Source: Escherichia coli
Lineage (GTDB): Bacteria; Pseudomonadota; Gammaproteobacteria; Enterobacterales; Enterobacteriaceae
Assembly (NCBI RefSeq): GCF_003334305.1
Contig: NZ_QOWS01000002.1
DNA: 64,000 nucleotides
Direction: 5' to 3' (one strand)
Shown piece after piece: positions 13,570-25,643 of the stretch. The position numbers were made by a program, and so were the translations under genes. Numbering within the stretch: the stretch's first letter is position 1; the number at the start of each line of letters is the position of its first letter. The notes beneath the pieces are model-generated. The model was not told where the DNA came from and did no database searches. It saw only the letters and a list, made by a program, of their open reading frames with translations.

Positions 13570-13898
13570 AACTGCATAAAAAAATAGAGTCTGTCGACAT
13601 CCGCCAGACTCTACAGTACACACAGCAGTGCATCCGCGTCTTAAGTCCGGCATTGTCTCCTCTGCGCCGGTGACTGTGTTATAACGGTTTTAACCTTTAG
13701 TTGCCAATTTTCTTCAGTGACAGATTTCACGAAAATATAAGTTACATTATTAATATCGTGAATGAATAATCATGCATAAGCATTTTGCTTAAAATATCGG
13801 CAATATTTGGAACTTATTACTGGAATTTTGGGTAATACGTTGTTGGACCGACCCGGTCTGGTTATCATATCGCGCTCTTAATTGCGGGAGGATGTAAC

Positions 13899-16953: not shown

Positions 16954-17142
16954 CAAAAGCAATTTTTCCGGCTGTCTGTATACAAAAACGCCGCAAAGTT
17001 TGAGCGAAGTCAATAAACTCTCTACCCATTCAGGGCAATATCTCCATTGCAGGTGAATGCAACGTCAAGCGATGGGCGTTGCGCTCCATATTGTCTTACT
17101 TCCTTTTTTGAATTACTGCATAGCATAATTGATTCGTACGAC

Positions 17143-17170
17143 GCCGACTTTGATGAGTCGGCTTTTTTTT
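17143..17170 (+). terminator. Rho-independent terminator-like hairpin plus T8 run downstream of zntB
   Basis: GCCGACT...AGTCGGC stem followed by TTTTTTTT. Confidence 0.6.
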
Positions 17171-18932: not shown

Positions 18933-19868
18933 TTATTTCACTTCAACCACATTCAGCCGTAACTCATCCAACTGATTTTCATCTTCTTCTGGCTGCCAGC
19001 CCGCCGGTTGTAGTGGGATCTCTTCGCGATCAAACGCCAGATCACCCCCGTTAACCACTTCAGAACCGTGGGTAATGCCTTTGAAATCGAACAGGTTGGT
19101 ATCGCACAGATGCGACGGCACCACATTCTGCATCGCGCTGAACATCGTCTCGATACGCCCTGGATAACGTTTATCCCAGTCACGCAACATGTCAGCAATC
19201 ACCTGACGTTGCAGGTTAGGCTGTGAACCGCACAGGTTGCACGGAATAATCGGGAACGCTTTTGCATCGGCAAATCGCTGAATATCTTTCTCGCGGCAGT
19301 AGGCCAGCGGACGAATAACGATATGTTTGCCATCATCGCTCATCAGTTTCGGAGGCATACCTTTCATCTTGCCGCCGTAGAACATATTTAAGAACAACGT
19401 TTGCAGGATATCGTCACGATGGTGACCCAACGCGATCTTCGTCGCCCCCAGTTCCGTTGCGGTACGATAAAGGATACCGCGACGAAGGCGAGAACACAGT
19501 GAGCAAGTGGTTTTGCCCTCTGGAATCTTCTCTTTCACGATACCGTAAGTATTCTCTTCAACAATCTTGTACTCAACGCCCAGCTTTTCAAGATACTCGG
19601 GCAGAACGTGTTCCGGGAAGCCCGGTTGCTTTTGATCGAGGTTAACAGCCACCAGCGAAAAATTGATTGGCGCGCTTTGCTGCAAATTGCGCAGAATCTC
19701 CAGCATGGTATAGCTGTCTTTACCCCCGGAGAGGCAAACCATGATGCGATCGCCTTCTTCAATCATATTGAAGTCAGCAATGGCTTCGCCCACGTTACGA
19801 CGCAGACGTTTTTGTAATTTGTTCAGGTTGTATTGTTCTTTCTTACTAATTTCTTGATTTTGCGACAT
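18933..19868 (-). CDS. ttcA: tRNA 2-thiocytidine biosynthesis protein TtcA
   Basis: 311-aa ORF with PP-loop SGGKDS and CxxC pairs. Confidence 0.9.
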
Positions 19869-20009
19869 TTAAAAGCGACTCAATTCGTTATATGGCATCA
19901 GAAGAGTATGCGTCATGCCGGAACGCCCAGCATAAGAAATCTGATATAAAAACTGTGGCGTGTATGGTACGGATTAGAGGGGAAAATGTCAGCACATTTG
20001 CGAAATGAA

Positions 20010-20037
20010 TCAAAAAGCCCGCAGCAATGTGCGGGCG
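20010..20037 (-). terminator. Rho-independent terminator of uspF
   Basis: GCCCGC...GCGGGC hairpin; T-run on the minus strand (A5 on plus at 20012-20016). Confidence 0.6.
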
Positions 20038-20043
20038 TTAGTG

Positions 20044-20559
<516 letters not shown>

Positions 20560-20583
20560 TTAGATCAAAGGAGGAAGAATAAG

Positions 20584-20611
20584 CAGAAAAAGCCCGCCAT
20601 AACAGCGGGCA
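20584..20611 (-). terminator. Rho-independent terminator of ompN
   Basis: GCCCGC-CATAACAG-CGGGC hairpin with T-run on the minus strand. Confidence 0.6.
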
Positions 20612-20618
20612 GGAGGAT

Positions 20619-21752
20619 TTAGAACTGATAAACCAGACCTAAAGCGACAATATCATCGGTAGAGATGCCATTGGCAGCGTAGAAACTGTCATCTTCATCC
20701 AACAGGTTGATTTTATAGTCAACATAAGTGGACATGTTTTTATTGAAATAGTAAGTCGCGCCAACATCGGCGTATTTAACCAGATCTTTATCATCAACAC
20801 CTGCCGGGTTGTCTGCACCACCGGCAGCGTGCAGGTCACGGCCTTTAGACATCAGGAAAGAGACTGCCGGACGCAGACCAAAATCAAACTGGTACTGTGC
20901 AGTGACTTCAAAGTTCTGGGTTTTGTTTGCAACAGCATAATCGCTGTCGCCAAACGGGGTCATATTACGCGTTTCTGAATACATGGTTGCCAGGTAAATA
21001 TTGTTAGCATCGTATTTTAGCCCAGCAGTCCACGCGTCTGCTTTATCACCACCCGCCGCAGTATGGTTAACCTGATCATTGGTGCGGTCAGAAGAGGTGT
21101 ATGCCGCACCAGCGCTAAAGCCCATGCCTAAATCATATGTTGTGGAAAGACCCCAGCCGTCACCGTTTTCATGGCGAACATCACGTCCGTTGTTGGTGCC
21201 TTCCTGACCATTACTGGCACCTTCGTTGTTACCTTGATACTGCACCGCGAAGTTCAGACCATTTACCAGACCGAAGAAATCAGTATTACGATAAGTCGCG
21301 ACGCCATTGGCTCGACCAGTCATAAAGTTGTCTGCATTGGTATAAGAGTCACCGCCAAATTCAGGCAGCATATCGGTCCAGCCTTCGATGTCGTACATTA
21401 CGCCATAATTACGTCCGTAATCGAAAGAACCGTAATCTGCAAATTTCAGCCCGGCAAATGCCAGACGGGTCCATGACTGGTTTTTTGAAGATTCAGTGTT
21501 GTTTGCCTGAATATTGTATTCCCATTGACCGTAGCCAGTGAGTTGATCGTTAATTTGGGTTTCGCCTTTAAAACCCAGACGCGCATAGCTCTGATCGCCA
21601 TCTTTCGCTGAATTATCAGAAAAATAATGCAGGCCATCAACTTTGCCATACAGATCTAATTTGTTGCCGTCTTTATTATAAACTTCGGCTGCATGTGCAG
21701 CACCTGCGGCGAGCAGGGCAGGAATTAAAAGTGCCAGTACTTTGCTTTTCAT
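20619..21752 (-). CDS. ompN: outer membrane porin OmpN (OmpC/F family)
   Basis: 377-aa ORF, signal peptide, C-terminal aromatic residue (ends LVYQF). Confidence 0.9.
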
Positions 21753-21979
21753 TGAATAAATCCTTTAGTTATTTTATTTGCCTTTTATCCCCATTCCGGG
21801 GAGTGAAAACATCCTAAAGGAGAAGTTCAGTTAGCCGATAAATATCATTTGTTACGCCTTAAGTAAAACCTTAATCAAATAATTCCTCTGAAATGATAAT
21901 AAGTCTGGTGAATGTATCGAAGATAATACATACAAAATAAAAATTATACTTTTAATTTTCTATACGTTATTCTGCGCGG

Positions 21980-22089
21980 GTTATATGCCTTTATTGTCAC
22001 AGATTTTATTTTCTGTTGGGCCATTGCATTGCCACTGATTTTCCAACATATAAAAAGACAAGCCCGAACAGTCGTCCGGGCTTTTTTTT
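21980..22089 (+). ncRNA. micC: MicC small RNA (Hfq-dependent regulator of ompC)
   Basis: GTTATATGCCTTTATTGTCACAG...GCCCGAACAGTCGTCCGGGC plus T9 matches MicC as I recall it; located between ompN and ydbK. Confidence 0.85.
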
Positions 22090-22118
22090 TAGAATTGGAT
22101 AATCCTTATCCAGAGCAT

Positions 22119-25100
22119 TTAATCGGTGTTGCTTTTTTCCGCTTTTCCGGCCATTTGTGCCAGGAAGTCATAGCGTTTTTGCAAATCAGCTGCAGCATCT
22201 TTCCATAACTGTTCTGCCACTTCTGGCTGCTGCGAATTCAGCCGACGGAAACGTTGCTCGTGAAGTAACGTTTCTTCCAGTGCTACTGACGGCGGGCGTG
22301 AATCCAGCGCCAGCGGCAGTTTGCCTTCATCGGCACGACGCGGATCGAAGCGATATAGCGGCCAGAAGCCGGTAGCTGTGAGTTGGCGCATCTGGTCGTG
22401 GCTGAGTGCCAGATCGTAACCATGCTCTTCACATGGGCTATAAGCGATGATCAGCGATGGCCCCGGATACGCTTCCGCTTCCTGAATCGCTTTCACCGTC
22501 TGGTTGAGCTGCGCGCCGAGAGAAATCTGCGCCACATAAACATGACCGTACATCATCATACTGACGCCAAGATCTTTACGCGCTTTACGTTTGCCGTGCT
22601 CGCCAAATTTAGTTACTGCACCCAGCGGTGTCGCTTTCGACGCCTGACCACCGGTGTTGGAATAGCATTGCGTATCCAGCACCAGAATGTTGACGTTTTC
22701 CGTCAAACTCAATACATGATCCAGACCGCCAAAGCCGATATCGTAAGCCCAGCCGTCGCCACCAATCAGCCAGATTGATTTTTCCACCAGTGCATCTGCG
22801 TCACGCAGCAGTTCATGTGCTTCGGCAACATCGTTGAGTTGCTGGCGTAAAGCTGCGACCTGTTCTCGACGAACCTCTGGCGTAGCGTCTGATTTCAACG
22901 CTGTCAGTAATTCCGCCGGGATTTTATCGGCAAATTGATCCAGCAGACGCAGCACGCGGACACGGTGTTGATCGACCGTCAGGCGGAAACCAAGGCCAAA
23001 TTCGGCATTATCTTCAAACAGAGAGTTCGCCCATGCCGGCCCACGACCGTTGGCATCGGTGGTATACGGTGTAGAGGGCAGGTTACCGCCATAAATTGAA
23101 GAACAGCCGGTGGCGTTAGCGATCAACATCCGGTCGCCATAGAGCTGAGTCAGCAATTTAATATACGGCGTCTCGCCACAACCGGAGCAAGCACCTGAAT
23201 ATTCAAACAGCGGTGTAATCAGCTGCGATGTACGAATATCAATACGTTCCAGTTTGCTACGGTCGATTTCTGGCAGGTTGAGGAAGAAATCGTAATTGAT
23301 TTTCTCTTCTTCGACATGTTCCAGGCGCGACATCATATTGATGGCTTTAATCTCTGGATTCTGACGGTCTTTCGCCGGGCAAACTTCGACGCACAGGTTA
23401 CAACCGGTGCAATCTTCCGGAGCCACCTGCAAGACATATTTCTGCCCGCGCATATCACGCGATTTCACATCCAGCGAATGCAGGCTGGCAGGGGCGTTTT
23501 CCATCGCTTCAGGCGGCACCACTTTTGCGCGAATAGCTGAGTGTGGGCAAGCGGCAACGCAGTGGTTACATTGGGTACAGAGTTCCTCTTTCCAGATGGG
23601 GATCTCTTCGGCGATATTGCGTTTTTCCCAGCGAGTGGTGCCCATCGGCCAGGTGCCGTCTGGCGGCAGCGCCGAAACGGGGAGGGCATCACCAAGCCCT
23701 GCGAGCATCGCTGCGGTTACGGTTTTCACGAAATCAGGGGCGGCATCGGAAACCACTGGCGGTCGATTGGCGCTGTGCGGATTTACCGGTTGCAACGGAA
23801 CTTCTTCTACGGATTCACGCGCCAGCGCCAGAGCCTGCCAGTTGCGTTCCACCAGATCCTGGCCTTTGCTACTGTAACTTTTGGCAATCGCACCCTGCAA
23901 TTCTGCGAGGGCGCTATCGCCAGGCAGAATTTGCGTCAGATGGAAAAAAGCCATCTGCATGACGGTATTAATACGGGCCGCCAGGCCACATTCGCGGGCG
24001 ATTTTCGCCGCGTTAATCACATAGAAGCGCGCTTTTTTCTGATTTAGCACGGCCTGAACTTCCTGCGGCAAGCGCGACCACACTTCATCTGCGCTGTACG
24101 GCGTGTTGAGCAGGAAAATGCCGCCAGGTTTTAAACGCTCAGCCATCTGATATTTATCGATAAACTGCAACTGGTGGCAGCCAACAAAATCAGCCTGGGA
24201 AATGAGATAAGCGGAACGAATCGGCTGTTCGCTCACGCGAAGGTGAGAAACCGTCAGGCCGCCCGCCTTTTTGGAGTCGTAAACAAAATAGCCCTGTGCG
24301 TACCACGGCGTGGAATTACCGATAATCTTGATATTGTTTTTGGTCGCGGAAACGCTGCCATCACTACCAAGGCCATAAAACAAGGCTTCCAGTTTCGCCG
24401 AGTTTGGCAGGGTGTTTTCCGGCAACGGCAGTGACAGATTGGTCACATCATCGTAAATACCAACCGTAAAGCGCGCTTTCGGTTTAGCCGCGTTGAGCTC
24501 GGCAAATACCGCCAGTACACAGTCCGGGCCAAATTCTTTGGATGAAAGACCATAGCGCCCACCAATGACACGGGGCAGAGTTTCGCGCTCGCCATTATTA
24601 AAGGCTTCTGCCAGTGCGGTCATTACATCCAGATAGAGCGGTTCTGCCTGGGCACCGGGTTCTTTGGTTCTGTCCAGTACCGCCACGCTGCGTACGGATC
24701 CCGGCAGAGCTTGCAGCAAGTGTTTGGCGGAGAAGGGACGGTACAGGCGAACTTTCAGCACGCCAACTTTTTCGCCACGGGTTAGCAATTCATCAACCAC
24801 TTCTTCACAGGTGCCAATGGCAGAGCCCATCAGGATAATCACCCGTTCCGCTTGCGGATGCCCGTAATATTCAAACGGCTGATACTGACGACCTGTCGCG
24901 GCAGAGAAATCATTCATCGCCTGTTCAACATGGTCATAGACCGCGTCGTACCATGGGTTGGTGGCTTCGCGAGACTGGAAATAAGTGTCAGGATTGGCGG
25001 ACGTACCGCGGATCACCGGATGTTCCGGGTTGAGCGCCCGGGCGCGATGAGCATCAATTTCGGCCTGCGGCATGAGATCAAGAATAGTGTCATCGGCCAG

Positions 25101-25643
25101 CGGGACAATTTTATTGATTTCGTGGGACGTGCGGAAACCATCAAAGAAATGAATAAATGGCACGCGGCTCTTCAGCGTTGCGATGTGCGAAATGAGAGCA
25201 AAATCTTGCGCTTCCTGGACGTTAGCCGCACACAACATCGCGCAACCCGTCTGGCGCACCGCCATAACGTCGGAATGATCGCCAAAAATAGAAAGTGCAT
25301 GTGTGGCAACGGTACGTGCCGCTACATGCAGGACAAATGGCGTCAGTTCGCCTGCCAGTTTGTACAGCGTCGGGATCATCAGCAGCAAACCCTGCGATGA
25401 CGTAAACGATGTTGAAAGGGCACCCGTCTGCAAAGCGCCATGCACGGTAGCGATAGCACCCGCTTCCGACTGCATTTCAACTACGCGTGGTGTGTCTCCC
25501 CAAACGTTCTTTAAGCCGTTTCCGGCCCAGGCATCAGCCTGTTCTGCCATCGTGGAACTGGGGGTAATAGGGTAGATGGCGATAACTTCACTGGTGCGAA
25601 ATGCGACCGAAGCAACCGCGCCATTACCGTCAATAGTAATCAT
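22119..25643 (-). CDS. ydbK: pyruvate:flavodoxin/ferredoxin oxidoreductase
   Basis: 1174-aa ORF with two 4Fe-4S ferredoxin CxxCxxCxxxCP motifs and TPP-binding region. Confidence 0.9.
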   Translation of the reverse strand: MITIDGNGAVASVAFRTSEVIAIYPITPSSTMAEQADAWAGNGLKNVWGDTPRVVEMQSEAGAIATVHGALQTGALSTSFTSSQGLLLMIPTLYKLAGELTPFVLHVAARTVATHALSIFGDHSDVMAVRQTGCAMLCAANVQEAQDFALISHIATLKSRVPFIHFFDGFRTSHEINKIVPLADDTILDLMPQAEIDAHRARALNPEHPVIRGTSANPDTYFQSREATNPWYDAVYDHVEQAMNDFSAATGRQYQPFEYYGHPQAERVIILMGSAIGTCEEVVDELLTRGEKVGVLKVRLYRPFSAKHLLQALPGSVRSVAVLDRTKEPGAQAEPLYLDVMTALAEAFNNGERETLPRVIGGRYGLSSKEFGPDCVLAVFAELNAAKPKARFTVGIYDDVTNLSLPLPENTLPNSAKLEALFYGLGSDGSVSATKNNIKIIGNSTPWYAQGYFVYDSKKAGGLTVSHLRVSEQPIRSAYLISQADFVGCHQLQFIDKYQMAERLKPGGIFLLNTPYSADEVWSRLPQEVQAVLNQKKARFYVINAAKIARECGLAARINTVMQMAFFHLTQILPGDSALAELQGAIAKSYSSKGQDLVERNWQALALARESVEEVPLQPVNPHSANRPPVVSDAAPDFVKTVTAAMLAGLGDALPVSALPPDGTWPMGTTRWEKRNIAEEIPIWKEELCTQCNHCVAACPHSAIRAKVVPPEAMENAPASLHSLDVKSRDMRGQKYVLQVAPEDCTGCNLCVEVCPAKDRQNPEIKAINMMSRLEHVEEEKINYDFFLNLPEIDRSKLERIDIRTSQLITPLFEYSGACSGCGETPYIKLLTQLYGDRMLIANATGCSSIYGGNLPSTPYTTDANGRGPAWANSLFEDNAEFGLGFRLTVDQHRVRVLRLLDQFADKIPAELLTALKSDATPEVRREQVAALRQQLNDVAEAHELLRDADALVEKSIWLIGGDGWAYDIGFGGLDHVLSLTENVNILVLDTQCYSNTGGQASKATPLGAVTKFGEHGKRKARKDLGVSMMMYGHVYVAQISLGAQLNQTVKAIQEAEAYPGPSLIIAYSPCEEHGYDLALSHDQMRQLTATGFWPLYRFDPRRADEGKLPLALDSRPPSVALEETLLHEQRFRRLNSQQPEVAEQLWKDAAADLQKRYDFLAQMAGKAEKSNTD

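Follow-up and report, generated by a model that had tools for sequence, protein, structure and literature searches.

The interval 21980-22090 on the + strand of the window, by which we mean the whole 64,000-nucleotide stretch of Escherichia coli contig NZ_QOWS01000002.1 that was analysed, is almost certainly micC, the gene for the Hfq-dependent trans-acting antisense regulator MicC of about 110 nt. The analysis established directly which gene this is, how it is structured and conserved, the synteny around it and its complementarity to ompC. This is an already known and well-studied E. coli gene, and its presence here brings no new biology. The preliminary description of this DNA had regarded MicC as expected in E. 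coli and useful mainly as an anchor for the annotation, which agrees with our finding that the region is present in 5413 of 5426 complete E. coli genomes. As an anchor, the gene places the window in the ttcA-uspF-ompN-micC-ydbK region of E. coli. The strain carries the usual MicC regulator of the OmpC porin, a regulator that bears on outer-membrane permeability and beta-lactam responses. Coordinates of the features are collected in Table 1.

Table 1. Features of the micC locus, in window coordinates
Feature	Position	Strand	Basis or detail
micC (MicC small RNA, ~109-111 nt)	21980-22090	+	RF00121, 125 bits; 111/111 identity to K-12 b4427
5' target-pairing region	21980-22001	+	bases 1-16 (21980-21995) complement the ompC leader; published duplex 22 nt
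Middle stem-loop	22014-22048	+	TGTTGG (22014-22019) pairs with CCAACA (22043-22048), variable loop; Rfam consensus structure
Intrinsic terminator	22057-22090	+	core hairpin 22060-22083, then nine T (22082-22090)
Probable -10 hexamer TATTCT	21968-21973	+	7 nt upstream of 21980; read from sequence
Conserved upstream box ATACAAAATAAAAATTATAC	21930-21949	+	-50 to -31; near-invariant across six genera
ompN (quiescent porin), divergent from micC	20619-21752	-	377-aa ORF; NCBIfam OmpC-subfamily porin, 594 bits
ydbK/nifJ (pyruvate:flavodoxin (ferredoxin) oxidoreductase), convergent with micC	22119-25643	-	1174-aa ORF; TIGR02176, 1631 bits

Gene identity and chromosomal setting

When window positions 20000-24000 were compared with Rfam 15 by cmscan, the MicC family (RF00121) gave a full-length match at 21977-22097 on the + strand, spanning model positions 1-123 of 123 with 125 bits against a gathering score of 90 (E = 1.4e-20), and a separate scan of the whole window at gathering thresholds recovered the match too. 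The preliminary description had placed a MicC small RNA at 21980-22089 and had named a MicC 5' seed and an intrinsic terminator there. The covariance model, 35 bits above its threshold, bears this out, and both elements are present. The start proposed there, 21980, is exactly that of K-12 b4427, and the end is one base shorter, within the run of nine T. Transcripts that end inside a U-tract normally have ragged ends; the length given for MicC in the literature is 109 nt.

The micC gene of K-12 MG1655 (b4427, NC_000913 1437121-1437231) maps to 21980-22090 of the window and is identical over its whole length, reading GTTATATGCCTTTATTGTCACAG...GACAAGCCCGAACAGTCGTCCGGGCTTTTTTTTT. For the transcription start, the G of GUUAUAUG, we follow the K-12 annotation. 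Over 231 aligned bases there is a single mismatch between the window and K-12, a T for G at 21959 (-21 from the start), so that the two differ in the promoter spacer and not in the gene itself. The K-12 gene (IS063, b4427, RF00121) thus shares with ours its sequence, neighbours, orientations, seed, middle hairpin and terminator. A search for the 20-base seed pattern gave a single occurrence in the window, against none in 100 shuffles.

The neighbours are likewise those of K-12, in which micC lies between ompN (b1377) and ydbK (b1378), both on the opposite strand. That micC is divergent from ompN and convergent with ydbK, as had been proposed, was confirmed by the ORFs, the protein families and the K-12 and RefSeq annotation, and the names ompN and ydbK/nifJ agree with RefSeq genomes as well as with K-12. 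The surroundings differ in one respect. In K-12, the 23-kb cryptic prophage Rac (1411899-1434958) is inserted at the ttcA end, about 0.8 kb beyond ompN, whereas in the window the uspF ORF comes no more than about 200 nt after ttcA (18933-19868, - strand, 311 aa), with ompN next to it (18933-20620 in all), a spacing that, by coordinate arithmetic against K-12, indicates that Rac is absent from this site. Two more small RNAs were found above their Rfam gathering scores, FnrS (RF01796) at 17049-17166 on the + strand with 135 bits and McaS/IsrA (RF00115) at 13576-13671 on the - strand with 117.6 bits; their spacing agrees with K-12.

Spread within E. coli and among Enterobacteriaceae

A 121-base micC query matched in the 5413 complete E. 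coli genomes mentioned above and found no match in the other 13 of the 5426. Identity was at least 99% in 3582 genomes, 95-99% in 1325 and 80-90% in 502. Five of the micC-region matches come from records labelled as plasmids, and a few genomes have two copies. The 502 genomes at 80-90% form a distinct group with a divergent allele, of which the one example examined, L048:401-516 from the RefSeq strain ampC_0069 (NZ_CP046396), has a 6-nt deletion and several substitutions, mostly in the middle loop, and its promoter spacer is changed. No change affects its seed, middle stem or terminator, and it reaches 105.7 bits on RF00121; another divergent E. coli allele, that of the GTDB representative E69, reaches 116.3 bits.

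For homologues outside E. coli, species-representative genomes were scanned once with the pattern GTTANATGCCTTTATTNTCA, which returned 45 loci. Thirty-four of them are enterobacterial (Escherichia, Citrobacter, Salmonella, Klebsiella, Pseudocitrobacter, Superficieibacter and some MAGs), and in every one of these the same terminator follows 100-114 nt after the pattern's first base. Because this pattern was used for retrieval, the lack of variation in bases 1-20 among them is partly built in. Where the flank is sufficient, ydbK is found on the opposite strand at a distance of 18-37 nt downstream, and an OmpN-type porin lies 220-295 nt upstream, also on the opposite strand, in all but two Salmonella loci. 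These two (L025 and L043, subsp. arizonae / diarizonae) keep ydbK/nifJ downstream, and no ompN-type porin was found in the upstream sequence searched at the two loci (about 4.3 kb and 3.1 kb). The 11 non-enterobacterial loci (Bacteroidota, archaea, Lactobacillaceae and others) lack the terminator and were dismissed as chance matches; three of them were scanned against Rfam and gave no match.

Nine enterobacterial loci were scanned with RF00121, and six reached its threshold, namely the two divergent E. coli alleles just mentioned, Salmonella with 124.9 bits, two from Citrobacter with 120.7 and 104.2, and Klebsiella with 98.8. The shorter versions of Superficieibacter, Pseudocitrobacter and UBA5654 stay below 90 bits, yet seed, terminator and synteny are all retained in them. 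These micC-like genes of 100-103 nt, at L004:6025-6124, L010:8530-8631 and L015:3516-3618 (Superficieibacter, Pseudocitrobacter and an Enterobacteriaceae MAG), differ in the middle section. The curated RF00121 model would miss such genes in annotation. Salmonella enterica MicC shares with the gene in the window the 5' seed, the terminator and the convergent ydbK/nifJ. It differs in that our locus has an ompN homologue upstream, which the two Salmonella loci lack, and in that the Salmonella RNA additionally targets the ompD coding sequence and hilD (bioRxiv 10.1101/2021.08.03.454913).

RNA fold and terminator

In an alignment of 35 sequences, the structure of two helices was paired in 94.8% of cells, and this value fell to 31-57% when the 3' partners were slid by 1-3 columns. 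The terminator helix was paired in 98.8% of cells across the homologues, with C-G/U-A compensation at its top pair, where four sequences have U-A instead of C-G. The middle helix was paired in 86% of cells over 34 distinct homologues, a percentage lowered because MAFFT places the helix one column off in three rows from Citrobacter; C-G/U-A swaps occur at its closing pair, with U-A in six sequences. As read from this alignment, both helices carry compensatory C-G/U-A changes. RNAalifold, unaided, recovers the terminator only, and the middle helix required a count against the named structure. The fold of the single sequence is moderately better than that of shuffles (z = -2.2). Its minimum free energy structure pairs the seed with 22048-22054, which we rejected as a functional structure because other genera do not conserve it.

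This pattern of conservation also bears on whether the stretch codes for a small protein, instead of or besides the RNA regulator. Mechanically called ORFs of 26-59 aa do overlap micC on both strands. However, most of them begin with TTG, the middle region tolerates indels of lengths other than multiples of three between homologues, conservation tracks the RNA helices and the seed rather than a reading frame, and the K-12 annotation has no such small protein, so that the probability of a coding stretch is practically negligible.

The terminator hairpin of micC is present both in the single-sequence fold and in the Rfam structure line. Its core is AAGCCCGAAC AGTC GTCCGGGCTT, with an A.C mismatch at 22067/22076. 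In a consensus terminator scan this hairpin is called on the - strand only, because 22067 A faces 22076 C on the MicC strand, while the opposite strand has a G.U pair at that position. Among the 35 aligned homologues the position is A-U in 33, and C occurs only in the window and in Escherichia sp. MOD1-EC7003; the C is found also in K-12 and in the divergent E. coli allele.

On the - strand the hairpin begins 35 nt past the ydbK stop codon, and all genera examined retain a spacing of about 30 nt. This conserved spacing suggests that the hairpin probably also terminates the convergent ydbK, and the simplest reading is a bidirectional terminator common to both genes. The same position would suit the view that the region is a mere 3' untranslated region of ydbK with its terminator on the - strand and that the likeness to MicC is incidental, the more so as the scan calls the hairpin on that strand. 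The only other Rfam matches in the area, sub-threshold ones to the Thr leader and the Leu leader, which we rejected as candidates, align to the terminator hairpin alone, and such weak matches indicate that the hairpin by itself draws generic terminator matches. Nevertheless, the RF00121 match runs through the full 123 positions of the model, 80 nt of it lying upstream of the hairpin, and a bare ydbK terminator leaves unexplained both the identity to K-12 micC and the 16-nt complement of ompC. Moreover, a shared terminator is compatible with MicC and hence is no alternative to it. We therefore regard a ydbK untranslated region as an extremely unlikely explanation and keep to the micC gene.

Probable promoter region and complementarity to ompC

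The probable -10 region of micC, GTTATTCT, is invariant in four Escherichia sequences, and its TAT is invariant across all genera compared. The -35 element is poor (TATACT at 21945-21950, 3/6), and this explains why an automatic sigma-70 consensus scan found no + strand promoter for micC. The silence of the promoter and terminator scans on the + strand was dismissed as evidence against micC, since the weak -35 element and the A.C mismatch account for both.

Further upstream, the box at -50 to -31 is near-invariant in six enterobacterial genera, Salmonella included, whereas the spacer from -30 to -15 varies freely. A preprint called this box "strikingly conserved" and stated that it matches neither the SlyA nor the OmpR consensus (bioRxiv 10.1101/2021.08.03.454913). 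It is presumed to be a regulator or promoter element. The complementary strand of the box reads GTATAAT, a perfect TATAAT on the - strand, so it may double as a -10 element of ompN. Such a role would leave the conservation of the box in Salmonella unexplained because ompN is missing there. Since the box is kept in Salmonella without ompN and fits neither known consensus, it could be the site of a further direct regulator. It is conceivable, though we consider it rather doubtful, that such a direct regulator of micC binds there and that the U-to-C change of E. coli, giving A.C on the MicC strand and G.U on the ydbK strand, tunes termination or Hfq loading separately for each strand.

With regard to the target, bases 1-16 of MicC show perfect Watson-Crick complementarity to the K-12 ompC leader from -30 to -15, and 16 nt is the longest perfect run. 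The K-12 leader was used in this comparison because the strain's own ompC lies outside the window. The paired segment of the leader, AAUAAAGGCAUAUAAC, lies directly 5' of the GAGGG Shine-Dalgarno sequence. RNAduplex gave -26.5 kcal/mol for the first 30 nt of MicC against the K-12 leader, compared with a mean of -13.3 (sd 2.6) kcal/mol for shuffled sequences, and none of 2000 shuffles was as good. No other site complementary to the seed was found within the window.

Citing Chen et al., 2004 and Zhang et al., 2003, PMC5745476 describes MicC as an Hfq-binding RNA that base-pairs with the leader of ompC and inhibits 30S binding; the duplex described there after Chen et al., 2004 is of 22 bp and blocks 30S binding. 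From the literature on the identical K-12 gene, we infer that micC is likewise expressed in this strain and that its RNA depends on Hfq and represses ompC. In this scheme, micC would be transcribed from its own weak promoter in the divergent spacer between ompN and micC, and the transcript would end at the intrinsic terminator, which very probably serves the convergent ydbK too. The single-stranded 5' end of MicC would then pair with the leader of the ompC mRNA, immediately before its Shine-Dalgarno sequence, and this pairing would block binding of the 30S ribosome, resulting in less synthesis of the OmpC porin.

As for the control of micC itself, the K-12 gene is reported to be repressed by H-NS and OmpR and induced by beta-lactams, and silencing by H-NS is strong in laboratory strains (PMC5745476). 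In Salmonella, SlyA activates micC (bioRxiv 10.1101/2021.08.03.454913). In ExPEC, a preprint reported that MicC affects fitness in several host niches, partly in an OmpC-independent manner (bioRxiv 10.64898/2026.07.27.741068).

The silencing by H-NS, the one base of the promoter spacer that differs from K-12 and the location of the strain's own ompC outside the window together leave room for an intact micC that is silent or functionless in this strain, owing either to the T for G at -21 (21959) or to a diverged ompC leader. On the other hand, a region of 501 bases that includes 21959 is 100% identical in many natural isolates, such as E24377A, which makes a silent copy unlikely, and the changed base lies in the freely varying spacer. 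Moreover, clinical isolates with unchanged promoters have widely differing levels of micC, so the sequence is not limiting for its expression. We consider a silent or functionless copy very unlikely and prefer a working micC.

Finally, the arrangement resembles that of MicF (RF00033) at the ompC locus, which is likewise a small RNA divergent from a porin gene. On the other hand, the sequence of MicF is unrelated to that of MicC, its target is ompF and its regulators are OmpR, SoxS and MarA. MicF and MicC reportedly show mostly opposite expression (PMC5745476).
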